Origin: a virus
Lineage: Duplodnaviria > Heunggongvirae > Uroviricota > Caudoviricetes
Strand: one strand, 5' to 3'
DNA length: 64,000 bases
Virus record (IMG/VR): IMGVR_UViG_2878480445_000013
Part shown: one piece after another, positions 7,292 to 59,828 of the stretch
Numbering within the stretch: position 1 is the stretch's first letter
How the letters are laid out: the number at the start of each line of letters is the position of its first letter
Notes under the pieces: model-generated
What the model was told of the DNA's origin: nothing
Databases searched by the model: none
What the model saw: only the letters and a program-made list of their open reading frames with translations
Position numbers and translations under genes: made by a program

Positions 7292-7297
7292 TTTTCC

Positions 7298-40942: not shown

Positions 40943-41034
40943 CCGTGTGTTTTGTTTTCCGTAGGGCTTTTCCCTTCGTTGTGACTGTATATTACCGTCA
41001 CTGCCCGGACATAGCAAGCGGCTATGCTGCACGA
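40943..41034 (-). promoter_or_regulatory. promoter-leader repeat copy 1
   Basis: Minus-strand consensus: GATCGTGTACTTTAGCCGCTTGATAGT-(N)-TGACGGTAATATACAGC..ACCGAAAGGGGAAAAC..GGAGG-ATG. It has -35 TTGATA, a 17-nt spacer and -10 TAATAT. Plus-strand landmarks are tatattaccgtca and tagcaagcggcta. Confidence 0.55.
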
Positions 41035-41129: not shown

Positions 41130-41414
41130 TCAGTGTGCGTTCTTGATGCACCACTCGATCGCGTGACCGGCATCCGTGTAGGTCTCATCGGAAATCTTCA
41201 GAAGCTCCAGTCGGCACTCAATCGGTGACCAGCCTTCCTCTGGGTCTTCCACAAATCCGTATACCGCTCCCTCCAGCATGCCGTTCCAGTTCATCTGGGC
41301 AACCAAAACCCGGTCGCCGAACTGCATGATGCTGTCGTAGCAAGGTCTGAGTCGGTCGTAGAAACTCTCAATGCTGATGTTGTTTTCTGGGAAATTAATC
41401 AAATGCTTTTTCAT
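41130..41414 (-). CDS. hypothetical protein (94 aa)
   Basis: Intact ORF MKKHLINFPENNISIESFYDRLRPCYDSI... behind repeat copy 2. Confidence 0.5.
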   Translation of the reverse strand: MKKHLINFPENNISIESFYDRLRPCYDSIMQFGDRVLVAQMNWNGMLEGAVYGFVEDPEEGWSPIECRLELLKISDETYTDAGHAIEWCIKNAH

Positions 41415-41429
41415 GGTGAATTCCTCCGT

Positions 41430-41520
41430 GTTTTCGTTTTTCCCTTGGGGCTTTCCCCTTTCGGTATGTGCATATTACCGTCAGATGCAAAGGATAGCAA
41501 GCGGCTAAAGTACACGATCT
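41430..41520 (-). promoter_or_regulatory. promoter-leader repeat copy 2
   Basis: Plus strand reads ttcccctttcggtatgtgcatattaccgtcagatgcaaaggatagcaagcggctaaagtacacgatc. Confidence 0.55.
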
Positions 41521-41879: not shown

Positions 41880-42071
41880 TTATCTGTTCATCCGTCCCAG
41901 CAGGTAGGCTTCCTCCATTGTTTTCTGGATGCCCCAGACCGGAACCTCAATGAAGTCCTCGCTGTCATTGTTGCGGGCTTCGAGGTCGCCCCGACTGTCT
42001 ACCGCTGCCATCAGGCGCTTGGCGATCTCCAGCAGGGCTTTTTCTTCTTCCTTGGTAATGTTCTTCTTCAT
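41880..42071 (-). CDS. hypothetical protein (63 aa)
   Basis: MKKNITKEEEKALLEIAKRLMAAVDSRGDLEARNNDSEDFIEVPVWGIQKTMEEAYLLGRMNR behind repeat copy 3. Confidence 0.45.
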   Translation of the reverse strand: MKKNITKEEEKALLEIAKRLMAAVDSRGDLEARNNDSEDFIEVPVWGIQKTMEEAYLLGRMNR

Positions 42072-42084
42072 GGTGGTTTCCTCC

Positions 42085-42165
42085 GTTTTTCTTGGTTTTC
42101 CGTTTCGGTATGTGCATATTACCGTCTATGTCACACACTATCAAGCGGCCATACTACACAAAGAT
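42085..42165 (-). promoter_or_regulatory. promoter-leader repeat copy 3
   Basis: Plus strand reads ttttccgtttcggtatgtgcatattaccgtctatgtcacacactatcaagcggccatactacac. Confidence 0.5.
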
Positions 42166-42699: not shown

Positions 42700-42785
42700 C
42701 TCCGTTTTTATTGTTTTCCCCTTTCGGTGACTATATATTACCGTCACTCTGGGGCACTATCAAGCGGCTAAACTACACGATCATC
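42700..42785 (-). promoter_or_regulatory. promoter-leader repeat copy 4
   Basis: Plus strand reads ttttcccctttcggtgactatatattaccgtcactctggggcactatcaagcggctaaactacacgatc. Confidence 0.55.
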
Positions 42786-43377: not shown

Positions 43378-43455
43378 TCTTTGCCCCTTTCGTTTTGGTA
43401 GCTGTATATTACCGTCACTGCCGGATACTATCAAGCGGCTAAAGTACACGATCAT
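43378..43455 (-). promoter_or_regulatory. promoter-leader repeat copy 5 (best-defined: -35 TTGATA = rc of 43429-43434; -10 TAATAT = rc of 43406-43411; 17-nt spacer)
   Basis: Plus strand reads cgttttggtagctgtatattaccgtcactgccggatactatcaagcggctaaagtacacgatc. Confidence 0.6.
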
Positions 43456-43704: not shown

Positions 43705-43790
43705 TTTGCTTTTTGTAGCTGTATATTACCGTCACCGCCCTGTGATAGCAAGGCCATAAAACGTCATATTATCACCGATCTTCACCCTTC
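43705..43790 (-). promoter_or_regulatory. promoter-leader repeat copy 6 (diverged)
   Basis: Plus strand reads ttttgtagctgtatattaccgtcaccgccctgtgatagcaaggccataaaacgtcatattatcaccgatc. Confidence 0.45.
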
Positions 43791-43900
43791 ATGTTTGGTA
43801 CATATATGATCCCTGATTGACTTGCTATATATGTGTTTCTGCGGCATTATACACACAACGAAAGCAAAGAAAACCAAACCAAAAACGGAGGACAAAAACC

Positions 43901-44152
43901 ATGAAAAAGACCATTACAGAAGTTGAAACCGCAATCGAAAACCGCATCGCAGAGCTTGAAGAAGAATACGAGCTGGACATTTACGACCGCAACGACATCC
44001 GGGAAGAAGAATACCAGAAAGCCGGATGGCGGCACGACCCTTTCCCAGAGGAGCTTGAGGAAGAAGACGAAGAAGAGGAAGAGGATTGGCACTACCACAG
44101 CATGGAGGAACGACTGAACGAGGTCGGTATGAGCATGAGGGATTTCTTCTAA
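43901..44152 (+). CDS. hypothetical acidic protein (83 aa) on the opposite strand
   Basis: MKKTITEVETAIENRIAELEEEYELDIYDRNDIREEEYQKAGWRHDPFPEELEEEDEEEEEDWHYHSMEERLNEVGMSMRDFF. The leader aaaaacggaggacaaaaaccATG matches the repeat leader motif but on the plus strand. A hairpin terminator follows at about 44165-44200. Confidence 0.5.
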   Translation: MKKTITEVETAIENRIAELEEEYELDIYDRNDIREEEYQKAGWRHDPFPEELEEEDEEEEEDWHYHSMEERLNEVGMSMRDFF

Positions 44153-44351
44153 GGAATCCCCCAGAGGCTCCCCAGCAGAGGCTGGGGCTCTGCCTCGTAT
44201 CCCCGGTTTTGGTTTGGTATGATACACAAAACCGCTGCCAGATGTTTGTGTACATTATGGCGGCGGTTCTCCTTGCTATTGTTGCTTTCCAGAGGTAATA
44301 TACAGTAAACTGGAAGGGGGGTCTCATTCTTTTGAGGCCCCCATTTTCCGT

Positions 44352-44616: not shown

Positions 44617-44988
44617 TTATTCCGGCTTCGTTCCGTCATCCATCTGGATGACTGCCATCTGCCCGAACATGCTGACGAATGCCTCCGGCACCCAGAAGCG
44701 TTCCCTGAATTTCCGGATCAGGTCTTGGGGCAACTCTGCGAAATCTTCCTCTCCCAGTCCACAGATGAAGAAGTTTCCCTTGATGGGCTGCTCCAGCTCC
44801 GGGATGTATCTGCTGAATGACTTCTCGGTGAACAGCCCGTTGTCATCGGTGACCAGGGCAGCGCGTTCTTCCCAAGGGTATGTGGCTGTGATGCAGTCGC
44901 AGTCGAGGATGCAGTAGAACTCTTCCAGGGAGTTTTCGATGTCCACCACCTGCGGATGCTCCATCGGTTTGATCAGAAGGACTTTCAT
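44617..44988 (-). CDS. DUF3846-family protein
   Basis: MKVLLIKPMEHPQVVDIENSLEEFYCILDCDCITATYPWEERAALVTDDNGLFTEKSF...KGNFFICGLGEEDFAELPQD matches the DUF3846 pattern seen in phages and conjugative elements (MKVLVIEPGK...EV.EI...LE..Q..VGG.IE..YPF.D..VALICNEEGK...FFICG). Confidence 0.55.
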   Translation of the reverse strand: MKVLLIKPMEHPQVVDIENSLEEFYCILDCDCITATYPWEERAALVTDDNGLFTEKSFSRYIPELEQPIKGNFFICGLGEEDFAELPQDLIRKFRERFWVPEAFVSMFGQMAVIQMDDGTKPE

Positions 44989-45452
44989 TCGACCCAGCCC
45001 CCTTTCACGATTGCCCAGTCTGCAAGATGCATCTTCTGCTGTCCGCCCCATGCAATGTCCTCTAACGCTTCCTCAGTTCCGCAGCGGTTGCAAATCAGAA
45101 TGTCCGCCCTTCGGCTGAGTGCCTGCTGCTGATGGTCGTAGCAGTCAGGATTTGCTCCGCACCTGGGGCAACGTGGGCCGGTCTGTCGCGTTTTTCCAAG
45201 CCGGTCGAGCGACACCTTGACCTCGGCTTCTGAAGCCACACGGTGGCAACTGTCCGCACCGTAGGAAATGTTCAGATGGCTTCCGGTGTCCCAGCTCACT
45301 AAGATGTTTCCGGCATCATCAACCCCGTTGCAGGTTCCCTGCGTTCCGATGGGCGGTGCCTGCCTGTCATCCATCTCATCGAGGATGATCCGGCATCCGA
45401 CCGGGAATTCTGCCCGAAGGCGTTTGACTGTCTTTTCGTCTGCGAAATTCAT
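44985..45452 (-). CDS. DUF4314-domain protein with C-terminal CxxC zinc ribbon
   Basis: EFPVGCRIILDEMDDRQAPPIGTQGTCNGVDDAGNILVSWDTGSHLNISYGADS is DUF4314-like. The C-terminus has CPRCGANPDC...CNRCG. Confidence 0.5.
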   Translation of the reverse strand: MNFADEKTVKRLRAEFPVGCRIILDEMDDRQAPPIGTQGTCNGVDDAGNILVSWDTGSHLNISYGADSCHRVASEAEVKVSLDRLGKTRQTGPRCPRCGANPDCYDHQQQALSRRADILICNRCGTEEALEDIAWGGQQKMHLADWAIVKGGWVE

Positions 45453-45928
45453 GCCTGCACCTCCTCGATCATCCGCTGGGCGGCGTCCTTATCCATGCAT
45501 TCTTTCAGCGCACCTTCGAGGATGTGCATCGGGAAGTGGAATGCCTTGTAGCCGTCATGCAGGACTTTGTAGTAATACCGGCTCGGTGCGCGGTGTCCGA
45601 AGTCGTTCTCCATGATGTAGACCATTGCGGTCACCCTCTCCGGCTCTGCCCCTTCCCGGAGCAGTTCGAGGTTCAGGTCTTCCTTGCGGTAGTAGTTCGG
45701 GTAGCCCTCATAGAGGTCGAGGTTTTCTTCGTCCCTTTCCGAGATTTCCCACACCAGAACCGGCGTGTTCTTCTTCGGGTTCGGTGCGATGGTGGCGCAG
45801 CCCCGGAATAAAAGCTCCCAGCCGGTCAGCACCGCCTGCCCTGCAATTTTTGCATCCGGGCATCGGTCTGACATCTGCTCCACCGACAGGTTGCTGCCGT
45901 AGGCGATGTAATATTTCTTGTTCTTCAT
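45449..45928 (-). CDS. gamma-glutamyl cyclotransferase-like (AIG2/GGCT family) protein 1
   Basis: From ATG 45928: MKNKKYYIAYGSNLSVEQMSDRCPDAKIAGQAVLTGWELLFRG.. carries the YxAYGSNL..M..R.P motif of AIG2/GGACT enzymes. RBS GGAGAG. Confidence 0.65.
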   Translation of the reverse strand: MKNKKYYIAYGSNLSVEQMSDRCPDAKIAGQAVLTGWELLFRGCATIAPNPKKNTPVLVWEISERDEENLDLYEGYPNYYRKEDLNLELLREGAEPERVTAMVYIMENDFGHRAPSRYYYKVLHDGYKAFHFPMHILEGALKECMDKDAAQRMIEEVQA

Positions 45929-45934
45929 TTGAAT

Positions 45935-46020
45935 CTCTCCCTTCGGTTTTCTCCGCTCTTGTCTGGCGGTATGGTATATATCACTCTTTTGCCCTGATTT
46001 ATCAAGGCCGATGAGCATCA
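45935..46020 (-). promoter_or_regulatory. promoter-leader repeat copy 7 (diverged variant)
   Basis: Plus strand reads ggcggtatggtatatatcactcttttgccctgatttatcaaggccgatgagcatcatatactgcac. It shares the tatatatcactc and tatcaag blocks with the copy at 49185-49275. Confidence 0.4.
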
Positions 46021-46058
46021 TATACTGCACAATGTTTTTTCCCTGTGATCGTGTACTC

Positions 46059-46580
46059 TTACATCATCTGCCGCTTCTTCAGATACCGGACGGCTTCCGT
46101 CCTTCCGATACTGGCGGAAAGCCCACGCTTCAGTGTGTCCAGTGGAAATTCCCAGTCGCTGTATCCGCCGCGCAGCAGTTCAAAATACTCGGCATCCGGG
46201 CAGCCAAGCCGCCGGTCCTCGTGCATCACATAAGCGATGCAAGGCTTTGCCTTTTTCATGCGGTTCCCGTTCAGGTTCCAGACCGGAAGCTGGAACTGCT
46301 TCTTATAGTAGTATTTTGGGCAGCCCTCGTATCGGTCCAGCAGGAGCTCATCGTATTCTGAGAGTTTCCAGACCACTGCCGGTACGCTTTCATTGGCATC
46401 CTGCTCAATGGTGGCATAGCAACCGGTCTTGCTCTTTTTGAACAGGAGCCGGTAGCCCTTGATCTCGGTCGTGCCGACCACCACAGCGTAGGGGCATCTC
46501 TTTCCCATCCGCTCCATGTCGAGGTTGCTTCCGTAGGCAAGGTAATATCTGGATGGGACTCGGCTGATCAATTCAAACAT
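46059..46580 (-). CDS. gamma-glutamyl cyclotransferase-like (AIG2/GGCT family) protein 2
   Basis: From ATG 46580: MFELISRVPSRYYLAYGSNLDMERMGKRCPYAVVVGTTEIKGYRLLFK... is a paralog of protein 1. The track ORF start at 46643 is a TTG alternative start. Confidence 0.65.
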   Translation of the reverse strand: MFELISRVPSRYYLAYGSNLDMERMGKRCPYAVVVGTTEIKGYRLLFKKSKTGCYATIEQDANESVPAVVWKLSEYDELLLDRYEGCPKYYYKKQFQLPVWNLNGNRMKKAKPCIAYVMHEDRRLGCPDAEYFELLRGGYSDWEFPLDTLKRGLSASIGRTEAVRYLKKRQMM

Positions 46581-46809
46581 CCGCCTCACCGTCCTCCCTG
46601 CCAGTGAATTCCACGCCCTGGAAATCATCTGTCCCAAGCTCAATCTGGCTGTCCTGCCACCAGTCCTCTGCCACTCGCTGGGCTTCCTCCACGGTCGGCT
46701 CTTTCATTTCGGATTCATAAATGGTCACCGTTCTCTGGTAGGTCTCGGTGATGGTCACCTTAAAGGTCCTGCCGCCCGGTGTGCTTTCATTTTTTAACGT
46801 GCTTTTCAT
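46573..46809 (-). CDS. hypothetical protein (78 aa)
   Basis: MKSTLKNESTPGGRTFKVTITETYQRTVTIYESEMKEPTVEEAQRVAEDWWQDSQIELGTDDFQGVEFTGREDGEADV. AGGAGG lies 9 nt before the ATG at 46809. It sits between the amidoligase and GGCT gene 2. Confidence 0.5.
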   Translation of the reverse strand: MKSTLKNESTPGGRTFKVTITETYQRTVTIYESEMKEPTVEEAQRVAEDWWQDSQIELGTDDFQGVEFTGREDGEADV

Positions 46810-46876
46810 AAACCTGCACCTCCTTCTACCGCCTCAAGGGCGGTTGCCCGCCCAAAAGGTGCCCGTGCATCCTGGC

Positions 46877-47812
46877 TTATTTGTTTCGCCAGGATGCGTT
46901 GCCCTCCATGTTCCGCAGAAGGATCTCCCTTGCCGTTGCAAATTCATCCCCGATGAATCCCAGCCTCAGCATCCAGCACCGCATCGCGTACTTTTCGTTG
47001 TCGGTCTGCTGGGGCTTCGGGCTTGCCGTTCTGACCATCTTGGCAAGCTGGCTCATTGCGAGGCAAAGCTGGATGTAGGCTTTCATCTCTCCAGCGTGCA
47101 GTCCGTTGCGCTTTCCGTCCGCTGGGTCTGCAAATTGGAAAAGGCGGAATTCAATGGTTCCTTTTGTAAAGGTGGCATGAAGGTTCAGCATATGGTACCG
47201 GCTTGAATTGTAGTGGGCATTCCGGTTTTCCCAGCTGGAACCGTTGCCTTCGTACCAGATGTCTTCCAGCTTGCGCATGGTGGTCGGCTTCTCGCGGTTC
47301 AGCCGGTCGAGGAAGCGGTGGTCGACTACCCGGCAATATTGTCCGGTGCGCCCTGCGTCGATCCGGATGGCTCTGCCGATCTGCTGTTCGTGTGCCGCCA
47401 TGATGTTCACAAGGTTGCGGATGGTCTTTGCGGTGTGGTCGCCTTTGCCGATGTGGATGTGGACCCCACATCCGCGACTTGGGCCGCTCTTTGCGCCTGC
47501 CTTGCGGAGCAGCCGGATGATTTCCTGCAGGGGTTCGATGTCATCGTAGGTGAGGATCGGGGTGACCAGTTCGCATTTTTCTGCGTCCGGTCCGTAGATG
47601 CTCACATCCCTCTGGAATTTCCAAACCCTGCCCAGCTGGTCCTTGCAAGCCCAGCTGTAATATCCGTACTCGCCGGCGGCGTTCCATGCTCTGGTTCCGA
47701 AGTACTCGGCAACCTTTCTTGCCGCTTTTTCTCTGGTGATGTTGTTCATCTCGATCTCAACTCCGATGGTCTGGTTCTTCATGGCTTCAATCTGCTCTCT
47801 TGTTTTATCGTT
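46877..47812 (-). CDS. amidoligase (Amidoligase_2 / glutamine-synthetase-like COOH-NH2 ligase family)
   Basis: From MNDKTREQIEAMKNQTIGVEIEMNNITREKAARKVAEYFG...WKFQRDVSI...ELVTPILTYDD...GCGVHIHIG.. The IGVEIE, xDxSI, ELVSP and HVHI motifs match the phage/plasmid amidoligase family defined by Iyer and Aravind. Behind repeat copy 8. Confidence 0.65.
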   Translation of the reverse strand, partial: NDKTREQIEAMKNQTIGVEIEMNNITREKAARKVAEYFGTRAWNAAGEYGYYSWACKDQLGRVWKFQRDVSIYGPDAEKCELVTPILTYDDIEPLQEIIRLLRKAGAKSGPSRGCGVHIHIGKGDHTAKTIRNLVNIMAAHEQQIGRAIRIDAGRTGQYCRVVDHRFLDRLNREKPTTMRKLEDIWYEGNGSSWENRNAHYNSSRYHMLNLHATFTKGTIEFRLFQFADPADGKRNGLHAGEMKAYIQLCLAMSQLAKMVRTASPKPQQTDNEKYAMRCWMLRLGFIGDEFATAREILLRNMEGNASWRNK

Positions 47813-47834
47813 CATGGTATGTTCTCCTTTGTTT

Positions 47835-47905
47835 TTTCCTTGTTTTCCCTTTCGGTATGTGCATATTACCGTCAGGTGCGGATAATAGCAAGGATATAAA
47901 AGAAC
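47835..47905 (-). promoter_or_regulatory. promoter-leader repeat copy 8 (drives the amidoligase gene)
   Basis: Plus strand reads ttccctttcggtatgtgcatattaccgtcaggtgcggataatagcaaggatataaaag. Confidence 0.5.
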
Positions 47906-47929
47906 ATATATTCGACAAATATGAGCCAG

Positions 47930-47995
47930 AATGATCGTGTACATTTCTGTGGTTTATCCGCTTGATAATGTACATTTTCAGAGTTAATATCGGTA
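47930..47995 (+). promoter_or_regulatory. inverted (plus-strand) copy of the promoter element, back-to-back with copy 8
   Basis: GATCGTGTACatttctgtggtttatCCGCTTGATAatgtacattttcagagTTAATATcgg has -35 TTGATA and -10 TAATAT 17 nt apart, firing rightwards, antisense to the 3' end of the 48048..49174 gene. The plus-strand ORF 47962..48372 looks non-coding. Confidence 0.45.
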
Positions 47996-48047
47996 CAATG
48001 GAAGAGGATCTCGCATTTTTTCCGGCCCACATTGGGGGCTTGGGAGC

Positions 48048-49174
48048 TTACGCTCCCGCCTCCAGCATCTGCGCCGTGTCTGCCCCACCGCCGGGCTGTG
48101 TCGGCTCGGCATCTGCTGATGCGATTGTTTCCCCAGCGGAGGCACTACCTTCCTGTGCTGCCTGTTTCGCGGCTTTCAGGGCATCCCGCTTTGCCTTTTC
48201 CCTTGCAAGGAACTTCTGTGCTTCCTCATCCGTGCGGAAAGCCGCATGGCCGGAAAGGTTCTCCATCAAGATCTTTCTGGTCTGCTTGAAGTCCGGGCCA
48301 TTCATGCCAAGGCGCAGAAGCCAAGTTCGCAAAGCGTATTTCTCATTTGAATCGTTCACCTCTTTTGCCTGAATCCGCTTCTGGCTGATAGCCTGCTGAT
48401 TCATCAGGATCGCAAGGTGTCCGAATGCAGTCAGGTGGTCATAATCCGGTGCCGTCGGGAAACCTGTAAAGGTAACTTTCTCATCTGTGATCGTCAAGCC
48501 TTCCAGGGAAGCACCATGCTGTTCTTCATATTCTTTGACCGCATGAATGAAATTTGCTACCGCATAAGTGCAGCTGTCATCTTTCAAGGCATCCACCAAC
48601 CCCTTATCGGCAAGGAAAATGCCGTCCGTTGCCTTGCTGATGAGTTCCCCTCTGCTGTAGATCAGATTGACCAGGTTGCGAAGCGATACGCCGTTATGCT
48701 GACTGATTGGAAAAGAAAAATCCGCATCCAGAGGGATTGCTTCTTCTGACACAGGCTGTTCCGTGCCTTCTTCCGATGGGATTTGCTCTGCACTCTCCAT
48801 TTCGGATTCCCCATCTTCCTCGGCTTCTTCTGGATCTCCGTCACAGGTCTCCTGCCCATTTGGATGTACTGCCGGGATCATCTGGACACCCTCGGCAAGG
48901 TCTACCGCAGGCTGTTCGTCTGCAGTTTCCTGCAAAGTCTCTGCATCCACATCCTCGCCGCCGCGGATCAGGCCTTCATTCATCAGCGTAGTCAGCAATT
49001 CCAGATCTGCATTTTCCGCCTCAACCAGCAGGTTGCCATCCCGGTCAATGGTATAATCTCCGATGTCATACGCATACCGAGGCGCCTTGGTGTAGTAGGA
49101 TGGATGCCTGTCAACTCCTCCATCCGCTTTGCCAGTGTTTTGCGCTCCTCTACATTTAGTTCAAATTTCAACAT
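48048..49174 (-). CDS. acidic hypothetical protein sharing a C-terminal helical module with the amidoligase; frame break near 49095
   Basis: ORF 48992..49174 (MLKFELNVEERKTLAKRMEELTG...) joins ORF 48048..48998 in the adjacent frame (...YAYDIGDYTIDRDGNLLVEAENADLELLTTLMNEGL...). C-terminus ...NEKYALRTWLLRLGMNGPDFKQTRKILMENLSGHAAFR parallels amidoligase ...NEKYAMRCWMLRLGFIGDEFATAREILLRNMEGNASWR. A long D/E-rich linker sits in the middle. Confidence 0.5.
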
Positions 49175-49184
49175 AATTCATCGC

Positions 49185-49275
49185 TCCTTTTTCATTATTT
49201 TGTTTTTGTACATCCCGATGTTTTTTTCGGTAGCACATATATCACTCTGAACCGGGCAAATAGCAAGTCCATTTC
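49185..49275 (-). promoter_or_regulatory. promoter-leader repeat copy 9 (diverged variant)
   Basis: Plus strand reads cggtagcacatatatcactctgaaccgggcaaatagcaagtccatttccgaataatc. Confidence 0.4.
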
Positions 49276-49397: not shown

Positions 49398-51522
49398 TTA
49401 TTCTTCCAGACCTGCGCACCATGCGATGCCGGCCAGAACAAAAAATGCGTTGGCTAAGCATATGCCGTTGCCCCAGATACGGTACTCTGCCGAATCCGTA
49501 TACGGGTCAGCCAGCCATTTTCGGATCTGCTTCTCCGTTTTCGGCTTCTTGGCATGGGTCACGATCTTACGGTGCGTTTCAAACACCTCCGTCCAGAACG
49601 CCAGCTCTTCTTCGGTCGGATCTTCCGTTCCGAGATCTCTGCACCACCAGTCCGGGAAACCCTGCAGTCTGGCACACTCGGTCGGTGTCAAACGGCGGAC
49701 GGTATAAGTCACAGGTGCGGGCTGTGCTTCCGGGTTGTCGATGACCAGACGGTCATTAAAAGCATCCTGCCCGTTGAAGCCGCTGGGATGCGCCCCTGTT
49801 GCCACCGTTCCCATGACACCCTCGTTCAGATGCGGTGCCGGTGCGATGGTGGTCGGGTCTTTGTAATCCCGTGCCATCAGGGTCGGTGCGACTTCTTTTG
49901 CCACCTGCATATAGGAGCCGGTGGTCATGGCATACACATCCTCCGGTGCGCAGACTGCATGACGGTCAGTGGCATCCAGTGTAAAGCAGACATCCTCATT
50001 GACGCCATCGCCCTGCGGACCGTTCTCATCCTTGCGGCCGATCATGTTGCCCTGCAAGACGAAGGTCTGCTGCTTCATCCCTAGCTCTGCTGCAAGTGCT
50101 GCTGACTTCTCTCCCAGATCCCGGACTTCATCCCTCTGATTCTGTGTAAAAGCAACCGGCTCTACTACACAGATGCCGCCCTGGTTACAGGTCGGGTCTC
50201 CACCACTGCGGTCAAGAGTCCGGGATGTATCTGCTTCATAAAAACCGCTATGCGGATTATCGGACATCATGGAATGACTGGCTTTGGAGCAGACACCGTA
50301 GCATTTCGGAACGAACAGCGTCTGGTCGTTGTTGCAGCCGAGGGTGGCTGACTTTTCTTCCTGCCAGATGGCTCCCTTGCCGCCGCCCTCACATCCGGAG
50401 CGGATCTTCAATGTGACTGCCGGGGAGTTCTCAACATCTTTCACCGGGCTTTCCACCGACTTTTCAACACCATCCATGACCAGTGGAACATTGCCGCCAC
50501 CCGTACCACACCGGCTGGTCAGGGTCTGCACCTTGCCATCCTCGGAAATCTTCACCCGGCTGTCTGCAGGATGGTTTTCCAAAGCAATAGCGGCAGGCAC
50601 AACACCAGCCCGGAGAGTTGGTGACCGTTCCTCTTCATACCCGATGCTTCTTGCGTTGGCAGAGTGTTCCGTGCAGAAACCGGCTGCTTCCAGAACACAC
50701 GGAGGATGGTGTGCTTCTGCTCGAAGCGTTGATGTCGCTTCCTTTGTCACATCCATTCTCTCCCCACCCTGATCATTCAGGCAGATTCTTCCTGTGCCGC
50801 CTGCCTTTCCAGTGCTGCTTTCAACACAGGTGGCAGCTCTTTGCCACGCACGGAAGCTCTCCGCAGAATACCGAGACACGCCTCGGACTCAAATAATACT
50901 TTTGGGGCACTCTGTCTGCAAAATCTGCGACAAGGAAGATTCGTTTTCTACGCTGGGGCACGCCCCACCACTGTGCATCAAGGACTCGATACGCGACACT
51001 CCATCCGTCTCCCAAATAGTAGTCAGCATCCGGCCATCCCTTTTTCTCAGGCGCAGGCACCTGGGCGGACGGTTCTTTAACACCGATGACGGCTTCGAGA
51101 ACTGCCTTGAAGTCCTGTCCTTTGTTTGAGGAGAAGGCCCCTGGCACATTCTCCCACACGATAAATCTTGGTTTTTCTCCATTGGTCTTACACCTCATTT
51201 CCTTCACGATTCGGATTGCTTCGTAAAACAGGCTGGACCGTGAACCATCCAGACCGTCCCGCTTACCGGCGATAGACATATCCTGACAGGGACTTCCAAA
51301 AGTAATGATGTCAACAGGCGGCAAGTCCGCACCGCTGATGGCAGACACATCACCATAGTGCCTCACCCACGGCAGGCGCTTGGTCGTGACTCGGATGGCA
51401 AAGGGCTCCACCTCGCTGCTCCACAGCGGAGTGATCTGCCCGGTCAAAAGTCCACCCAACGGGAAACCCCCGGAACCATCAAAGAGGCTGCCGAGTGTCA
51501 GCTGTTTATTCTCCATCGGCAT
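49398..51522 (-). CDS. DNA (cytosine-5)-methyltransferase, long TRD; at least two frame breaks near 50800-50900
   Basis: ORF 50821..51522 has motif I LTLGSLFDGSGGF, motif IV GSPCQDMS, ENV and QRRKRIFLVA. The third frame continues YYLSPR-CLGILRRASVRGKELPPVLKAALE. ORF 49398..50879 ends with motif X TVRRLTPTECARLQGFPDWW. Confidence 0.75.
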
Positions 51523-52801
51523 CCTCGCTTTCCGGCTCGAAGGTTGCCACTTCCTCGAACTTCAGCTTCTGACCGTCGCGGATAACAAACACATCATCGT
51601 AGTGGCCTTCGCTGTGTTCGATGTACCGCTTCACGATAACATCCACGAACTTCGGGTCCAGCTCGATGCCCCGGCACACACGGTCTGTTTCCTCACAGGC
51701 GATCAGTGTCGAGCCACTGCCGAGGAACGGATCAAGCACGATGCCGTTGGTCATAGTGGAATTGCGGATCGGATAGCTCATCAGACCGATGGGCTTCATG
51801 GTCGGATGGTCCTTGTTGGACTTCGGCCGGTCATACTCCCATATGGTCGTCTGCTTCCGGTCGGAATACCACTGGTGCTTCCCCTTCTGCTTCCAGCCGT
51901 AAAGACACGGTTCGTGCTGCCACTGGTAAGGACTGCGGCCCAGCACCAGCGCATTCTTCTTCCAGATACAGCACCCGGACAGGTAGAACCCGGCATCCTT
52001 GAATGCCTTTCTAAAGTTCAGCCCTTCCGTATCTGCATGGAAGATGTAGATGGAACCGTCGTCTGCCAGATGGCCGTGCATCTGCTGGAACGCTGCCAGA
52101 AGGAACTGGTAGAATTCCGAATCTCCCATGTTGTCATTCATGATCTTACCGGCAGTCTCTTCCACATCCACGTTATAAGGGGGATCGGAAAGGACCAGAT
52201 TTGCCTTGGTTCCGTCCATCAGGGTGTCGTAGCATTCCGCTTTGGTAGAATCCCCGCACAGAACGATGTGCTTTCCCAGATGCCAGAGATCACCCTCTTT
52301 GGAGAAGCATGGCTGCTTCAGCTCGGATTCCACATCGAAGTCATCTTCCTTGACCTCTTTGCTGTGGACCTTGTTGAACAGCGTCTCGATCTCAGGCGGG
52401 TCAAAGCCTGTCTTACCGAGGTCGAAGTTGGAATCTTCGATGTCCTTGAGCAGGTCAGCCAGCAGAGAATCATCCCATGCACCCGTGATCTTGTTGAGTG
52501 CAATGTTCAGGGCTTTCTCTCTGGTCTTGTCGATGTCCACCACCGCACAAGGCACTTCTGTGTATCCCAGTTCCATTGCAACAGTCAGTCTCTGATGGCC
52601 GCCGATGATCGTCATGTCGGCATTGACCACCAAAGGATCTGCGAAGCCGAACTCCGTGATGGAGTTCTTGATTTTCTTGTACTCTTTATCCCCCGGCTTC
52701 AACTTTTTCCGGGGATTGTATGCAGCCGGCTTGAGTACGGACACCGGCAGCATCTTTAGTTCAGCAGTCGCTTCATGTAAGCCCTCCCGTTTTAGATTCA
52801 C
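51506..52801 (-). CDS. ParB-like nuclease domain fused to beta-class N6-adenine/N4-cytosine DNA methyltransferase (DPPY)
   Basis: N-terminus LPVSVLKPAAYNPRK...IIGGHQRLTVAMELG is a ParB/Srx fold. The C-terminus has LVLSDPPYNVDV and an FLGSGSTLIACE SAM-binding motif. This architecture is common in phages and conjugative elements as a protective orphan methylase. Confidence 0.8.
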   Translation of the reverse strand: MNLKREGLHEATAELKMLPVSVLKPAAYNPRKKLKPGDKEYKKIKNSITEFGFADPLVVNADMTIIGGHQRLTVAMELGYTEVPCAVVDIDKTREKALNIALNKITGAWDDSLLADLLKDIEDSNFDLGKTGFDPPEIETLFNKVHSKEVKEDDFDVESELKQPCFSKEGDLWHLGKHIVLCGDSTKAECYDTLMDGTKANLVLSDPPYNVDVEETAGKIMNDNMGDSEFYQFLLAAFQQMHGHLADDGSIYIFHADTEGLNFRKAFKDAGFYLSGCCIWKKNALVLGRSPYQWQHEPCLYGWKQKGKHQWYSDRKQTTIWEYDRPKSNKDHPTMKPIGLMSYPIRNSTMTNGIVLDPFLGSGSTLIACEETDRVCRGIELDPKFVDVIVKRYIEHSEGHYDDVFVIRDGQKLKFEEVATFEPESEDADGE

Positions 52802-54571: not shown

Positions 54572-54589
54572 TTTACTTTTCCTTTTCTA

Positions 54590-54618
54590 TTGAAATCTGA
54601 TAGCATTTATGCTATCAT
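54590..54618 (+). promoter_or_regulatory. promoter (TTGAAA-17-TATCAT) with embedded perfect palindrome TGATAGCATTTATGCTATCA (54598-54617): operator for the HigBA-like operon
   Basis: The -35 is at 54590-54595 and the -10 at 54613-54618. The 20-bp palindrome spans the spacer and -10. This is a typical toxin-antitoxin autoregulation site. Confidence 0.55.
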
Positions 54619-54662
54619 TATGTTGAACAAATGAATAAGATAACTTAGGAGACCATACACTA

Positions 54663-55046
54663 ATGAGCGACGCTAAATATGAAATTGCGTTCTATCAAAC
54701 AAGAGACGGTGAATGTCAGGTTTGGGACTTCCTCGAAGGATTACGCATTAAAGCCTCTACCAACAAGGATGCCCGCATCCAACATAAGCAAGCCAGCTTA
54801 TACATTGAGTTGCTCTCACTAAACGGGACCAACATGAATGAAAACATCACAAAGCATTTGGAAGAAGACATCTGGGAATTACGTCCCGGTAACAACCGCG
54901 TTTTTTATTTCTTCGTCCAAAAAGACACCTTTGTTCTACTCCATCAATTCCGTAAAAAGTCTCAGAAGACTCCTCGCAGGGAAATTGAGAAAGCAAAGCG
55001 TGAACGTGATGACTATCTGTCCAGAAAGGAGAACGGTGAATTATGA
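54663..55046 (+). CDS. type II toxin, RelE/ParE superfamily (phage Gp49/HigB-like)
   Basis: ...EDIWELRPGNNRVFYFFVQKDTFVLLHQFRKKSQKTPRREIEKAKRERDDY matches the Gp49-like (DUF891) pattern ELR....R..YF......IVLLH.F.KK.QKTP..EI..A. Confidence 0.7.
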   Translation: MSDAKYEIAFYQTRDGECQVWDFLEGLRIKASTNKDARIQHKQASLYIELLSLNGTNMNENITKHLEEDIWELRPGNNRVFYFFVQKDTFVLLHQFRKKSQKTPRREIEKAKRERDDYLSRKENGEL

Positions 55047-55330
55047 AAACTTGGAACGATTACAAAGAACACGTAAAAACAGTCGATCCTGTCATTGCAA
55101 AAGACATGGAAGAAACTGAAGAAATCGCAGCCATCGTAACCGCAATGGTCGAGCAGCGAAACGCACTTGGCTTAAGCCAGCGTGATCTTGCTGCTATGTG
55201 TGGCATTCCTCAGTCCTCTGTTGCAAGAATTGAATCTTGCAAAACAACTCCTAATCTTGGAACTTTGTTAAACATTTTCCAGCATCTTGGACTGACTCTT
55301 ACCGTTTCCCAAGCTAGACCAATGGCATGA
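55043..55330 (+). CDS. XRE-family HTH antitoxin (HigA-like)
   Basis: ALGLSQRDLAAMCGIPQSSVARIESCKTTPNLGTLLNIFQHLGLTL is an HTH_3 fold. A 4-nt overlap with the toxin gene (ATGA) is typical of Gp49/XRE pairs. Confidence 0.7.
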   Translation: MKTWNDYKEHVKTVDPVIAKDMEETEEIAAIVTAMVEQRNALGLSQRDLAAMCGIPQSSVARIESCKTTPNLGTLLNIFQHLGLTLTVSQARPMA

Positions 55331-55387
55331 TGTTTAATCCTCCGGGAGTGACGGGGAGCCTTACGGCGTAGAATATCACTCACTTTG

Positions 55388-55418
55388 AGAGCTTATCCTC
55401 GGATAGGCTCTTTTTTAT
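55388..55418 (+). terminator. rho-independent terminator of the HigBA operon (hairpin + T6), convergent with the metK end
   Basis: GAGAGCTTATCCTCGGATAGGCTCTTTTTTATTT. Confidence 0.55.
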
Positions 55419-56482
55419 TTCTCCCACGGAAGACCAGCCTTACCGAAATGACCGTAAGCACTGACCTTGTTGTAATCTACATCCAACAGACCCAGCCGCT
55501 TGATGATACCCTGCGGAGTCAGGTCGTAGCTGTCATGAACGTAGGCTTCGATGAAGTCCAACGACTGGTGTTCCGTACCGAAGCACTCCACCGACACACC
55601 CACTGGCTGTACCACGCCGATGGCGTAGGCCAGCTGGACTTCGCACTTGTCTGCGTAGCCGGCCTGCACGATGTCCTTTGCAATCTTTCGTGCCATGTAT
55701 GCTGCGGAGCGATCCACCTTGGTGGGGTCTTTACCGCTCAGAGCACCGCCACCCATGCGACCAATGCCGCCGTAGGTATCGCACGCCAGCTTCCGACCAG
55801 TCACACCACAATCGGCGTAGCTGCCACCCAGCACAAAACGGCCGGTCGGATTGACCAGCTTCGTGAAGTCCCCATCCAACCCATACTCACAGGCGGCCAG
55901 TACCATCATGGATTCGATGATGTGCCTGAAGTCGCCGACCTCCACATCCGGGCTGTGCTGCACGGAGCAGAGGAATGTGGTGATGCGTCCGGTGTCGTAA
56001 TCGTAGCTGATCTGCGCCTTGGCATCTGCACGGAACATCTTGGACGGATGGTTCTTCAGCAGCTGCAGGAACTTGGTGGCGACCATGTACGGGATCGGCA
56101 TCTGCTCTGCCGTCTCGTTGGTGGCGTAGCCATACATGATTCCCTGGTCACCGGCACCGCCCTTATCCACGCCGAGCGCAATGTCCGGTGACTGCTTGTC
56201 CACCAGAATGCCGATACGAAGAAGCTCAGTCAGGTTCCAGCCCAGCTTTTCAGCACCGATGCGGTTGAACACATCGTGAACGATCTGGTTGTAGTTTGGC
56301 CGATAATCGGTAGTGACTTCGCCGGCAATAAAAAGCTGGCTCTTTTTCAGCAGACACTCGATTGCCACACGGGCGTTCCTGTCATGCTGGAGAATGTCGG
56401 TCACGATGGCATCTGCGATCTGGTCACAGATCTTATCGGGATGACCATTGCTGACCTGTTCACATGTAATAATCTTACTCAT
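55415..56482 (-). CDS. metK: S-adenosylmethionine synthetase (methionine adenosyltransferase), compact phage-encoded form
   Basis: 355-aa intact ORF with MetK hallmarks: GHPDK (N-terminus), GAGDQG, NPTGRFV, DTYGG, SGKDPTKVDRSAAYMAR. Confidence 0.85.
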   Translation of the reverse strand: MSKIITCEQVSNGHPDKICDQIADAIVTDILQHDRNARVAIECLLKKSQLFIAGEVTTDYRPNYNQIVHDVFNRIGAEKLGWNLTELLRIGILVDKQSPDIALGVDKGGAGDQGIMYGYATNETAEQMPIPYMVATKFLQLLKNHPSKMFRADAKAQISYDYDTGRITTFLCSVQHSPDVEVGDFRHIIESMMVLAACEYGLDGDFTKLVNPTGRFVLGGSYADCGVTGRKLACDTYGGIGRMGGGALSGKDPTKVDRSAAYMARKIAKDIVQAGYADKCEVQLAYAIGVVQPVGVSVECFGTEHQSLDFIEAYVHDSYDLTPQGIIKRLGLLDVDYNKVSAYGHFGKAGLPWEK

Positions 56483-56833: not shown

Positions 56834-59286
56834 TTATAGAAGGCTGTCTTTGGGCTTGTAAGCATCCTGCACAGTCTGATCCTCTGCCCCTTCTTCCACT
56901 TCCTTGAATTTACAGCCGAGAATCAGCGTCGTTTGGCCGCCACCGCCTTTGGGCCGTTTTCGAGCCACTGTAAAATGCACGCCGAGGGCATTTTTGAAGT
57001 TCTTCTGGTTTTCCGAAGAATAACCATTCTCCTCACACCACTTTGTGTACAACTGGTATGCTGCAGCGGTCCGAAGTTCAGCCTCATTATCTTTTTCCAG
57101 CCACGCTTCGATAAACTGTCCGATTCGATCAGAATCATCCTTGTAATCTTCCGTAGCTTTTGTGACAGCCTGCGGAAGTTCCAGACCTCGCTGGCAATAT
57201 TTCTTGTACCCTTCCAAGCACCAGTTGAAAATACCTGACAGGTTCTCCGGCTTCGCAAACTGCCCCTTCAGCCCCTGGTCCTGTTCTCCCTCTTCAAAGT
57301 GACGGTTGAACGGTATGATTTTCAGTCGGCCGGATTGGAACAGGGTCATATCATTAACATTGGGCAGGTAGTTCGTATTGATAAAAATCTTGAACACTGG
57401 CACAAAATCAAAGCTGTTCTCATTCAGGAATCGGGCGTTGATGGTATCGTTGCCGGTCATTCTTTTTACGAGAGCTGCATTGAATGTGATCTTCTTCTCC
57501 GGCTCAGAGATATTTACGAATCTGGAACCGACCAGACGAGCCACTTCTTCCGAGGTCCGCCTGTGTTCCCACCACGGAATTTAGCTGCCAACATATCCGG
57601 ATTTGATGTCTTTCCGTAGTCGCCCATGATCTTCAGGAATGTTTCCATTGCAGTACCTTTTCCGTTTCGGGAAGTGGCACCGTAAAGGATAAACATACAC
57701 TCCTGAGAGGTGTCTCCTGTCAGGGCGTATCCCAAAGAACGCTGAAGGAAGTCTGCCAGATCTGCATCCCCGCACATGACTTCCTTGATAAACGAGTGCC
57801 AGCGTTGGCAGTCTGCATCCGGGTCATAGGTAATACCGGATTCCATTGTGAGATAATCCTCCGGCCGATGCTCCCTGAATTCCAGTGTCCGCATATCCAG
57901 CGTTCCATTTTTGCAATTAAAGAAATACTTGTTCCTGTCGAATGCCTGCATGGAGATCGGATACACGGACATGGCATCTTTCAGCATCGTTTCCCGGTTC
58001 TTACGCAGTTGCAGCTTTCGGACACGGTCGATGAACCGCTTCCTGGCATCCTCTTCAGTGATCGTCAGGGCAAACACATACAGCTTGTCAGCCAGCAGCT
58101 TTGCCAGTTCCGACACCTTGAGATTGCCTTTGTCCGGCCGCCAGACAGAGCCGTCATAGACATACCAGCCTTTACGCTCACTGTTGTACCGGGCGATCTG
58201 CTTGAAATAATCCGCAAACATATTGCCCATACCGATCTCATTTCTTCCATACCGGGCATTTGTATGCGGAGCCATTTCTTCCAGAGTAACTGTGATCTTG
58301 GTGAGATCCGGCTGAAACTCGATATAATCATCCTCATCCAGCTTGGAAAATTCCTCATCGACAATGTCCTGCGCATTGACCGGCATATAGACAGCCGAAC
58401 AGGTATTGACGGTATTGCGGATGGAAATCGCACCGTAGGTCGAACCAGCCTGCTTGCGATCCCACTTATCACGCATCAAGCCCGATGTACGGAAGATGCG
58501 ATCCATCTGCTCCTCATCGCAGCCACACCAGAATGCCAAAATGGACAGTAACGCCATATCTGCATCCGACTGGCTGCCATAGAGATCTTCCCAGTCACCG
58601 GCAAAGAGTTTTTTGAATTTATCACTGTTGCTGGCTTCATTGGCGTGTGCGATAACTGCCTCATCATCCAGATACGAATGGTGCTGGAAATGGGTCTGCT
58701 GCACCTGCTTGTTTCGCTTCATCAGCGTGTCCAGCAGTGTTGTCATTGCCGTTTCATCGTTTGGGATCTCACCTGTGCGGTAAACATCTCCCGTTACGGT
58801 GACGAAGCGGTTCGTCGCACCGGGCATATACACTTCCAGACCTTTGCTGCGGTTGTTGATGTAGTAGACCGTCTTGTCATAGACGTAGTCTTCCGGCACA
58901 CAAAAGAAACCTCGCAACCCTTTGCCGGACGGTGATTTTTCCACGTAAGCTGTAGGAAAGATAGAAAGGACGGTGTCCGCTGTATCGTTCAGCGTGCCAT
59001 CCTCCCGGATACAGTGGTCGATATCAAAAGCACCGATTCCGTTGCCAACTGCAATACCGATACCGTCATAACCACCCATTGCATAAGTGACGAGGGTATT
59101 CTTGAAATCTGAGAATGTACGCAGGTCATTGATCTTTGCCCGTTCTCCCGTTGCCGGATTAAACGGCATCTTGGTCTTCTGGCCATTGCGCTTTTCAAAC
59201 TTCCAGACACAGAAGCTGCAGGTCGTTTTCAGCTTGCCCGGAATGTTCTTGATGTCCATCATGCCTGCGCCTCCCTTCCCGTACAA
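56834..59286 (-). CDS. bifunctional primase-polymerase / D5-P4-family primase-helicase (SF3 NTPase); frame break near 57520-57560
   Basis: ORF 57514..59286 has N-terminal prim-pol and PriCT-like regions and a Walker A ILYGATSRNGKGTAMETF. ORF 56834..57544 continues the P4-family C-terminal domain (ARLVGSRFVNISEPEKKITFNAALVKRMTGNDTINARFL...IPFNRHF). Confidence 0.7.
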
Positions 59287-59828
59287 GCCTGCATCGCAAA
59301 CTGCTTTTTAACCGCAGCTTCGATCTCCTGCTTTTTCCTGGCCGAGGTCACACGGCAGAGCCGGCTGCACAGAACCATCTTGTCAATGGTCGTGATCTGC
59401 TCCACCAGCAGAATGGATTCTTCCAGACACTCATCCCGGAGCATTTCACAGTCTTTCTCGGTGACCGGAATGTGTACCGGCAGCTCCAGCTTCTTCAGCT
59501 TAGAACTCATCGGGATCGCCGTGATGATCGGGGAATTGCGGTTTGCCATATCGTTGCTGATAACCAGCACCGGACGGTTTCCGCTCTGAACCGAAGTGCC
59601 ATAATGATTTCCCAATTCTGCAAACCAGATTTCATACTGCTTCGGTATCTTTGTTGCCGGCCACTGATCTGCTGGCAACTCGTGAAACTGAGGTTCTTTC
59701 GATGTCAGTTTACAAGATGCCTCTGATCTGCGGTGCGGCTTTGTTTTTCCACGCTGATTGATGTATTTATTGACATGGATCTTGCGGCCGCGCTCTACCG
59801 GCCGGGCATTACTTTTCTTTCGTCCCAT
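59259..59828 (-). CDS. MazF/PemK-family endoribonuclease toxin-like protein with about 60-aa basic N-terminal extension (start uncertain)
   Basis: Core YEIWFAELGNHYGTSVQSGNRPVLVISNDMANRNSPIITAIPMSS...LPVHIPV...SILLVEQITTIDKMVL matches the PemK/MazF growth-inhibitor pattern. Confidence 0.55.
   Translation of the reverse strand: MGRKKSNARPVERGRKIHVNKYINQRGKTKPHRRSEASCKLTSKEPQFHELPADQWPATKIPKQYEIWFAELGNHYGTSVQSGNRPVLVISNDMANRNSPIITAIPMSSKLKKLELPVHIPVTEKDCEMLRDECLEESILLVEQITTIDKMVLCSRLCRVTSARKKQEIEAAVKKQFAMQACTGREAQA

Follow-up and report, generated by a model that had tools for sequence, protein, structure and literature searches.

A predicted amidoligase and cyclotransferase cassette beside a putative pseudoenzyme paralogue of its ligase in a probable Blautia prophage

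The stretch of virus DNA analyzed here (IMG/VR record IMGVR_UViG_2878480445_000013; 64,000 nt, hereafter the window) contains seven genes between DNA methylase genes and the terminase genes, among them a predicted amidoligase, two gamma-glutamyl cyclotransferase (GGCT)-like proteins and an acidic protein that resembles the ligase. All seven are located on the minus strand, and their single orientation and positions are as given in a preliminary description made from the sequence. Read along the coding strand, the order begins with primase, MetK (55415-56482), a ParB-N6 methylase (51506-52801), a frameshifted C5 methylase (49398-51522), the acidic protein and the ligase. It continues with a DpnD/PcfM-like small protein (PcfM), the cyclotransferases GGCT2 and GGCT1, a DUF4314 protein, a DUF3846 protein, small genes including those for DUF6900 and Nmad4 proteins, and the terminase genes TerS and TerL. 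The proximity of orphan methylases and MetK, pointed out in the same description, is confirmed at these coordinates.

Predicted enzymes of the region

The ligase gene (46877-47812, minus strand) encodes a protein of 311 aa with an isoelectric point (pI) of 9.35. It belongs to Amidoligase_2 and is predicted to be an ATP-dependent carboxylate-amine ligase of the glutamine synthetase/glutamate-cysteine ligase (GS/GCL) type. The Pfam model PF12224 matches at 3.1e-54 (184.9 bits against a cut-off of 22) over profile positions 1-244 of 245, and PHROG 2443 matches at 9e-104. In an alignment of eight ligases (homologues from Clostridia, Faecalibacterium, Bacillus, Arthrobacter and Porphyromonas phages, with hosts of four phyla), E19, E21, E81, H118, H120, R205, E221 and R223 are invariant, as are G17, W64, K65, D69, S71, P85, C115, G116, C160, N210 and G218. 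The Pfam match and the invariant residues bear out the earlier assignment of this gene as a GS-like COOH-NH2 ligase; its product is assigned the GS/GCL-type fold. By analogy with GS and GCL, individual residues would take part in metal binding, ATP binding and handling of an acyl phosphate. The nearest solved relatives are a YbdK-like protein, GCLs, GS and gamma-glutamylmethylamide synthetase; a sequence search of the PDB with the ligase returned no match.

The two cyclotransferase genes are located downstream of the ligase, both on the minus strand. GGCT1 (45449-45928, 159 aa) matches the Pfam families GGACT (1.5e-11) and AIG2_2 (2e-6), and GGCT2 (46059-46580, 173 aa) matches GGACT (3.7e-9). 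Scores against PF06094 are 45.3 bits for GGCT1 and 37.6 bits for GGCT2 (cut-off 22.8), and PHROG 2520 matches at 5.1e-41 and 1.3e-36, respectively. The two proteins are 35% identical to each other (E 2e-32). GGCT1 aligns over its full length with human GGCT (2pn7), and its YIAYGSNL and LYEGYP segments align with human YFAYGSNL and the position of the catalytic Glu98. When GGCT1 is aligned with the 3cry chain, that chain departs from wild type exactly at the Glu98 column. GGCT2 is in register with GGCT1 through YLAYGSNL and RYEGCP. The proposal of two paralogous GGCT-like genes is supported by these comparisons: both proteins match GGACT/AIG2 and keep the YGSNL motif and a glutamate at the catalytic position. 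More broadly, the Pfam profile searches suggested with the preliminary description match the ligase, GGCT, DUF3846 and DUF4314 proteins, and its domain calls (DUF3846, a DUF4314 zinc-ribbon protein, two GGCT-like proteins and Amidoligase_2) all hold by Pfam or PHROG matches.

The acidic protein as a paralogue of the ligase

The acidic gene (48048-49174, minus strand), whose relatives are named 'virulence-related protein', is frameshifted in the window. It consists of a 60-aa open reading frame (ORF; 48992-49174) and a 316-aa ORF (48048-48998) in different frames. An intact homologue from Blautia faecis (P0001) is continuous over 375 aa and 97% identical; it carries the UniRef name 'virulence protein', with 1096 member sequences on 514 contigs. 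Alignment with four relatives locates a 1-nt deletion (the T of CCTTAC) between 49098 and 49097. What had been described as a 316-aa protein spanning 48048-49174 is really a 375-aa gene broken by this deletion. A programmed frameshift was considered and rejected, because the relatives have one unbroken ORF.

Comparison of the ligase with the acidic protein by BLASTP detects the C-terminal 68 residues only (38% identity, E 2e-13). This C-terminal homology had been noticed previously and is real; the acidic protein shares more with the ligase than this domain. PHROG 2443 ('amidoligase enzyme') matches residues 96-286 of the acidic protein, and tblastn matches of the ligase to 'virulence-related proteins' span residues 97-309. 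The HHpred-type check proposed for the acidic protein was run with hhalign, comparing eight of its family members (hereafter partners) with the eight ligases. Homology extends over essentially the full length (99.55%, E 2.4e-23, 245 columns), from positions 28-280 of 336 in the partners to positions 30-296 of 297 in the ligases. In the joint alignment, the correspondence begins at the first strand. The ligase segments VEIEMNNITREKAA, GCGVHIHIG, HTAKTIRNLVN and GTIEFRLF align with LKFELNVEERKTLA, PLDADFSFP, HNGVSLRNLVN and EKVTFTGF of the acidic protein, and the ligase segment SRYHMLNL is deleted.

The side chains expected to be required for catalysis are among those that differ. All 26 partner representatives have other residues in place of E19, E21, H118, H120, E221 and R223, and all lack R205 and N210 through deletion. 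At least 23 of the 26 keep R27, G39, H126, N133 and L134, along with the C-terminal columns N272, K274, R278, R283, G285, G288 and R295. The Pfam Amidoligase_2 model does not detect the acidic protein. Full-length homology combined with replaced or deleted catalytic columns shows this protein to be, as judged from its sequence, a catalytically dead paralogue of the ligase (a pseudoenzyme) and not an active member of Amidoligase_2. The paralogue retains a surface shared with the ligase (R27, H126 and the RNLVN helix) as well as the C-terminal helical module, which is basic (NEKYAxRxWLLRLG...R..L). It may act as a non-catalytic binder, adaptor or decoy for a ligand or partner that is seen by the C-terminal module of the ligase, and we infer that both proteins bind the same partner through this module.

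The AlphaFold2 model of the acidic protein has a mean predicted local distance difference test score (pLDDT) of 83.7, with 258 residues at or above 90 and residues 75-145 disordered. Its best-ranked named fold match in BFVD is a phage amidoligase, with five more ranked lower; these matches are weak (E 0.055 and weaker). The charges of the two proteins are opposite, with a pI of 4.4 for the paralogue as compared to 9.35 for the ligase. An insert at residues 73-148 contains 28 acidic and 0 basic residues, and pLDDT falls below 50 within it. A strongly acidic insert is present in 27 of the 36 representatives with a pattern-delimited linker, and some relatives have a short, neutral linker. A role as a DNA mimic of the Ocr or ArdA kind was rejected on these grounds, as the acidity resides in a variable, disordered insert that is short and non-acidic in some relatives. 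The acidic protein also has no match to DNA-mimic anti-restriction families in Pfam, NCBIfam or PADLOC.

The paralogue family is large, with 2278 clusters at 50% identity for E <=1e-3 and 1198 for E <=1e-10. The sharing of a domain between an enzyme and an acidic protein, initially regarded as unusual, is therefore widespread, and the paralogue also occurs without the ligase. Profile searches of a 5.8-billion-protein set returned only close relatives (identity >=64%), whose names were limited to 'virulence protein' and 'amidoligase family protein'; two top matches (P0367, P0368) are assembly chimeras with duplicated segments. Separately, one of the partner-family proteins P0321 and P0236 forms a fusion of 797 aa with a large serine recombinase and the other has an N-terminal helix-turn-helix (HTH) and zinc-ribbon extension (551 aa). 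These fusions may be real and hint at a DNA-related role, or may be gene-calling artefacts.

Conservation and setting of the slot

Gene content was surveyed in 80 IMG/VR loci with a ligase 64-99% identical to that of the window, by searching all ORFs with the window proteins; 77 or 72 of the 80 loci could be assessed, depending on the feature. A GGCT gene is located within 2 kb downstream of the ligase in 77/77 loci, and the paralogue directly after the ligase is GGCT2 in all 77. Two GGCT genes are present in 16/77, making the duplication less unusual than first supposed. The dead paralogue is located upstream in 54/72 loci. DUF4314 is present in 58/72 and directly precedes the ligase in 47/72, while DUF3846 (10/72) and PcfM (12/77) are sporadic. 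This neighbourhood survey, suggested with the preliminary description, yields a strict ligase-GGCT linkage; the seven-gene unit is not kept. Instead of the single module envisaged there, the ligase and GGCT form a separable pair, and DUF3846 and PcfM are proposed to be independent passengers.

The same components recur in other combinations in more distant phages. The ligase-GGCT pair is found in the unrelated Bacillus phage 035JT001, and Arthrobacter phage Laroye contains the ligase with a glutamine amidotransferase (GATase). The Porphyromonas and Faecalibacterium phages that carry the ligase have no recognisable GGCT gene nearby. The paralogue occurs without the ligase in Streptococcus phage Javan102, where DUF4314 follows it, in a C. 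butyricum prophage, and in the Heliusvirales genomes NatCom_9287 and NatCom_27009; in the examples examined, it always sits after the methylases and before the terminase. In Streptococcus phage Javan25 the slot holds only DUF4314, a domain also found on Enterococcus and Staphylococcus conjugative plasmids.

The clearest separation is seen in two Blautia phages, NatCom_24097 and NatCom_27009. The two share 98% identity through the methylase genes and the paralogue, and their similarity resumes at DUF4314. Their sole difference is a 1.5-kb segment carrying the ligase and GGCT (6868-8378 of locus L015), in place of which the counterpart has 22 bp. Because phages this similar differ by exactly that segment, the ligase and GGCT constitute a discrete, dispensable cassette. 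The paralogue and DUF4314 are part of the phage backbone, and the enzymes are inserted between them. Taken in aggregate, the region is best explained as an accessory slot of variable content, bounded by the DNA methylases and the terminase.

The DUF4314 gene (44985-45452, minus strand; Pfam 3.7e-26) encodes the DUF4314 domain at residues 6-71 followed by a CxxC...CxxC zinc ribbon, and has a 4-nt start/stop overlap with both the GGCT1 and the DUF3846 genes. The ribbon part matches PHROGs 2945, 6105 and 9308, and is a separate 66-aa ORF, apart from DUF4314, in two surveyed loci (L060 and L093). In a Monoglobus plasmid (H73) a DUF4314 match sits inside a gene annotated as DUF3846. The DUF3846 protein of the window (44617-44988, minus strand) has 123 aa (Pfam 5.7e-22). 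The 78-aa ORF (46573-46809, minus strand) exists as first described; left unnamed at that time, it can now be called DpnD/PcfM-like (PF14207, 3.1e-7, 30.7 bits against a cut-off of 25). Its stop codon lies over the start of GGCT2 in an 8-nt overlap.

A repeated element, CTTGMTA-N12-GACGGTAATAT, is present in 7 exact copies, all on the minus strand between 40989 and 47892 (0.02 expected): at 40989-41018, 41472-41501, 42116-42145, 42735-42764, 43406-43435, 43723-43752 and 47863-47892. Each is located 50-75 nt upstream of a start codon. The aligned copies resemble a sigma-A promoter, with TTGmTA, a 17-nt spacer and TAATAT, and are flanked by GTGTAsTTTAGCCG upstream and by a conserved ACCGAAAGGG downstream. 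Each copy precedes a short gene of the slot before the terminase, and the ligase has one copy (47863-47892, CTTGCTA-N12-GACGGTAATAT), ~50 nt upstream of its start codon. The spacer contains an invariant GACGG and the transcribed leader is conserved, which points to a dedicated regulator. Because an Rfam scan of 38-56 kb returned no match, the element is not a known RNA family. It is conserved in relatives, and in distant ones the exact motif directly precedes the paralogue gene. In the window, the earlier proposal that the ligase and the acidic gene each have a copy stands for the ligase; upstream of the acidic gene there is only a diverged promoter-like element, read from the sequence (49225-49267, minus strand; CTTGCTA ... 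TGATAT ... TACCGAAAAA). This element differs from the seven-copy family by >3 mismatches and has a 21-nt repeat in common with 45967-45987.

Two of the slot genes with their own promoter copy are located just upstream of the terminase genes on the minus strand: an Nmad4 gene ('nucleotide modification associated domain 4', 3e-20) at 41130-41414 and a DUF6900 gene (5.6e-19) at 41880-42071. The only opposite-strand gene of the slot (43817-44152, plus strand) encodes a very acidic protein of 111 aa with an EEEDEEEEED run and no family match. Relatives keep this gene on the opposite strand; a terminator-like hairpin is located at 44317-44342.

The window as a whole probably represents a temperate phage (prophage) of Blautia of the Candidatus Heliusvirales type. 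The best annotated DNA and protein matches are Candidatus Heliusvirales genomes with the same gene order. Many gut metagenomes contain near-identical copies (~95% DNA identity), and Blautia faecis genomes carry such a copy as a prophage; a plasmid DNA search returned no match. The lineage is widespread in the gut and has been linked to metabolic syndrome (PMC9226167, PMC11283538). Ligases 96-97% identical to that of the window are also found in prophage copies from assemblies labelled Faecalibacterium intestinale and Clostridium fessum (L097, L098), in addition to Blautia faecis; these labels imply a host range of unusual breadth, unless they result from contamination or misbinning.

Further differences from relatives are seen outside the slot. 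The C5 methylase is split (49398-50879 and 50821-51522), as is the D5-type primase (56834-57544 and 57514-59286); in relatives these are single genes of 751 aa and 809 aa. With the acidic paralogue there are at least three frameshifts in 10 kb, and since all three genes are split, the window is either an error-prone assembly or a decaying prophage copy. In close relatives the ParB-methylase and the C5 methylase are separated by a further N6/N4 methylase of 257 aa (L003, 6751-7524), which is missing from the window at the 51506-51522 junction. Between MetK and the next gene there is an 849-bp insertion as compared to close relatives (54572-55420), with plus-strand ORFs for a Gp49/HigB-like toxin (54663-55046; Pfam 1.7e-18) and an HTH_3 antitoxin-like protein (55043-55330; 2.4e-12). 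A protein with a PemK/MazF-like toxin domain (59259-59828, minus strand; 1.2e-19) is encoded immediately upstream of the primase, and related Heliusvirales genomes likewise annotate a MazF-like gene in the primase region.

Predicted chemistry, role and relation to known systems

Characterized ligases of this superfamily phosphorylate the gamma-carboxylate of glutamate and then hand it over to an amine. GGCT-fold enzymes cut gamma-glutamyl amides with a free alpha-amino group, releasing 5-oxoproline. If the phage proteins follow this chemistry, the reactions likely involve: ATP-dependent activation of the gamma-carboxylate, presumably of glutamate by analogy with the characterized enzymes, as an acyl phosphate; transfer to an amine on a target, forming a gamma-glutamyl amide; and attack of this amide by one or both GGCTs via its free alpha-amino group, yielding 5-oxoproline and regenerating the amine. 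A gamma-glutamyl amide is proposed as the ligase product because characterized ligases of the superfamily work in this way, and the GGCT would then act on that product. Formation of such an amide at the expense of ATP followed by its cleavage to 5-oxoproline is the most likely chemistry by this analogy. Working together, the two enzymes could install and remove a gamma-glutamyl mark or protecting group, or else sustain a cycle at the expense of glutamate and ATP.

The role of the slot is most probably host takeover or counter-defence, the whole basis for this being the position beside MetK and the methylases and the accessory, mobile-element character of the gene content. The counter-defence role advanced in the preliminary description had the same neighbourhood basis, and PADLOC found nothing that adds to it. 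The reading favoured overall, and held tentatively, is that of a separable gamma-glutamyl cassette of ligase and GGCT, a dead-paralogue binder and a probable function in takeover or counter-defence. Several points weigh against it. The carboxylate donor need not be glutamate and the GGCT need not act on the ligase product, and if both enzymes acted on one bond simultaneously the result would be a futile cycle in need of explanation. Scans of all seven proteins with NCBIfam and PADLOC gave no match. The paralogue may be non-functional in this particular genome, since its gene is frameshifted; and because it persists in phages that have no ligase, its function cannot depend on the ligase. Finally, no experimental function, substrate, product or phenotype was found in the searchable literature for a pair of Amidoligase_2 and GGCT, in keeping with the preliminary description.

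A more specific proposal joins the cassette and the backbone pair in a reversible protein gamma-glutamylation system. Here, the dead paralogue with DUF4314 would serve as a target-recognition adaptor through the shared C-terminal module; the ligase would mark lysines of a host protein (in defence, transcription or replication) or of a virion protein; the GGCTs would erase the mark; and in phages without the enzymes the adaptor would inhibit the same target by binding alone. That all four steps hold together is unlikely. If they do, the system would add a new post-translational modification to phage-host conflict, in one of the most prevalent human-gut phage lineages.

The alternative that survives best, though less probable than the favoured reading, is an auxiliary metabolic cassette: a private small-molecule gamma-glutamyl cycle with no macromolecular target. 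Such a cycle could make or break gamma-glutamyl amino acids or polyamines, drain glutamate and ATP to 5-oxoproline, or destroy a host gamma-glutamyl compound, and would reprogram nitrogen or amino-acid metabolism in infection or lysogeny. Consistent with this proposal, the nearest solved relatives of the ligase are all small-molecule enzymes, human GGCT, to which GGCT1 is closest among solved proteins, has gamma-glutamyl amino acids as substrates, the PHROGs class of GGCT is 'moron, auxiliary metabolic gene', and the cassette is dispensable. A phage with amidoligase, GATase, glutathione synthase and GGCT genes has been proposed to help nitrogen metabolism (PMC10945688), although that claim is speculative. 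The metabolic proposal leaves three features unexplained, however: a dead paralogue with a shared, highly conserved binding module; the fixed position between methylases and terminase; and the link with small mobile-element domains such as DUF4314.

Modification of the cell envelope is improbable. An amino acid or amide would be added to a peptidoglycan stem peptide, teichoic acid or surface protein and trimmed by GGCT, the purpose being a block to superinfection or tuning of lysis. In the C. clostridioforme prophage paper (PMC11318856) this idea is cited for phage amidoligases and attributed to Iyer et al. 2009 for phiEco32. The cassette is accessory, and the slot genes each have their own promoter, a common arrangement for morons expressible from a prophage. 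By eye, however, the translations of the region have no obvious N-terminal hydrophobic segment, and no cell-wall enzyme genes adjoin them.

Still less probable is DNA or nucleotide hypermodification, in which the ligase would act on a modified base, adding to the protection from restriction that methylation gives. Thymidine-hypermodification clusters from viral metagenomes have been found together with amidoligase and amidotransferase genes (PMC8989533), and the cassette is located beside three DNA-modification genes, with the Nmad4 gene 5 kb away. Yet a scan of 38 ORFs across 38-64 kb found no dUMP hydroxymethylase, 5-HMUDK kinase, aGPT-Pplase or TET/JBP protein, nor the combination of kinase, Pplase and 5-hydroxymethyldeoxyuridine (5-hmdU) enzyme that characterizes thymidine hypermodification. 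GGCT, the constant partner, would have no obvious role on DNA by its known chemistry, and near-identical phages lack the cassette.

Least probable is pupylation-like tagging, in which a small phage protein or peptide would be joined through a C-terminal glutamate to lysines of host proteins, in the manner of PafA and Pup. In its favour, the ligase has genes for small proteins (DUF4314, PcfM) beside it. However, no conserved tag ending in Glu or Gln was found, PcfM is present in only 12/77 loci, and GGCT, which needs the free alpha-amino group of the glutamyl residue, could not remove a Pup-like tag. DUF4314 itself was rejected as the tag because its C-termini vary and lack a final Glu, Gln or GG.

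The system is open to a first biochemical test, for which the 98%-identical phage pair with and without the cassette and the isolate lysogen Blautia faecis DFI.3.66 are suitable handles, and the dead paralogue may point to the target. Most related loci surveyed carry this slot. Were a substrate defined, thousands of Firmicutes phage genes annotated as 'amidoligase', 'GGCT' or 'virulence-related protein' would gain a function, and it would become clear whether gamma-glutamylation serves phage-host conflict.

Among known systems, the gamma-glutamyl cycle (a GCL/YbdK-like ligase with human GGCT, C7orf24) has the same logic of a ligase that forms a gamma-glutamyl bond and a cyclotransferase that forms 5-oxoproline. 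It differs in that identity is 10-15% and in that the phage ligase has a smaller core (~250 aa) and an extra C-terminal module. PafA and Dop are paralogues with diverged activities on a gamma-glutamyl-lysine isopeptide, and in this respect resemble the phage pair of diverged paralogues. In contrast to the phage paralogue, which is without the catalytic residues, Dop is active; there is no Pup-like tag, proteasome or Mpa context here, and removal would use a cyclotransferase rather than a Dop-type amidase. In butirosin biosynthesis, the ligase BtrJ adds a gamma-glutamyl protecting group that the GGCT-type cyclotransferase BtrG removes as 5-oxoproline. This pair is a precedent for writing and then erasing rather than for a futile cycle. 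BtrJ is an ATP-grasp enzyme and not GS-like, however, and it operates in a secondary-metabolite cluster with a carrier protein, genes that have no counterpart here.

The closest relation is to the amidoligase systems of phages and plasmids with GGCT and/or class-II GATase that Iyer, Abhiman, Burroughs and Aravind are said to have predicted in silico in Mol Biosyst in 2009. The PF12224 ligase, the pairing with GGCT and the mobile-element setting are common to both, as they are to 035JT001 and, in the GATase variant, to Laroye; the adjacency typical of amidoligase-GGCT(-GATase) systems is seen in the surveyed loci, with GGCT after the ligase in every one of the 77. Unlike the predicted systems, the window has no GATase and no ATP-grasp partner. 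The Clostridia-phage clade adds the basic helical module at the ligase C-terminus, the dead paralogue bearing this module and the tight association with DUF4314, and none of these three features was found described in the searchable literature. A paper on polyvalent proteins does not mention these domains; one on a K. pneumoniae 'amidoligase' is irrelevant, as that enzyme is an ATP-grasp protein.

The records nearest to the window are those of Candidatus Heliusvirales PV036426, PV036444 and PV036434 and of the C. clostridioforme LM41 prophages, which share with it the gene order methylase, C5 methylase, partner, in some cases DUF4314, amidoligase, GGCT and terminase. In phi13-alpha and phi13-epsilon of LM41, two ORFs per prophage are labelled 'amidoligase' (PHROG 2443) beside GGCT (PMC11318856). 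The labels in all these records are automatic, and none identifies the first ORF as a dead paralogue. Unlike them, the Blautia faecis prophage lineage of the window has a second GGCT, a PcfM-like gene, DUF3846 and a fusion of DUF4314 with the zinc ribbon. The pairing of ligase and GGCT is thus already known, as a class predicted in 2009 and labelled for these phages in GenBank and PHROGs. What is new relative to the searchable literature is modest: the 'virulence-related protein' appears to be a dead full-length paralogue that shares the clade-specific C-terminal module of the ligase, and it forms with DUF4314 a backbone pair, likewise undescribed there, between which the enzymes are inserted.

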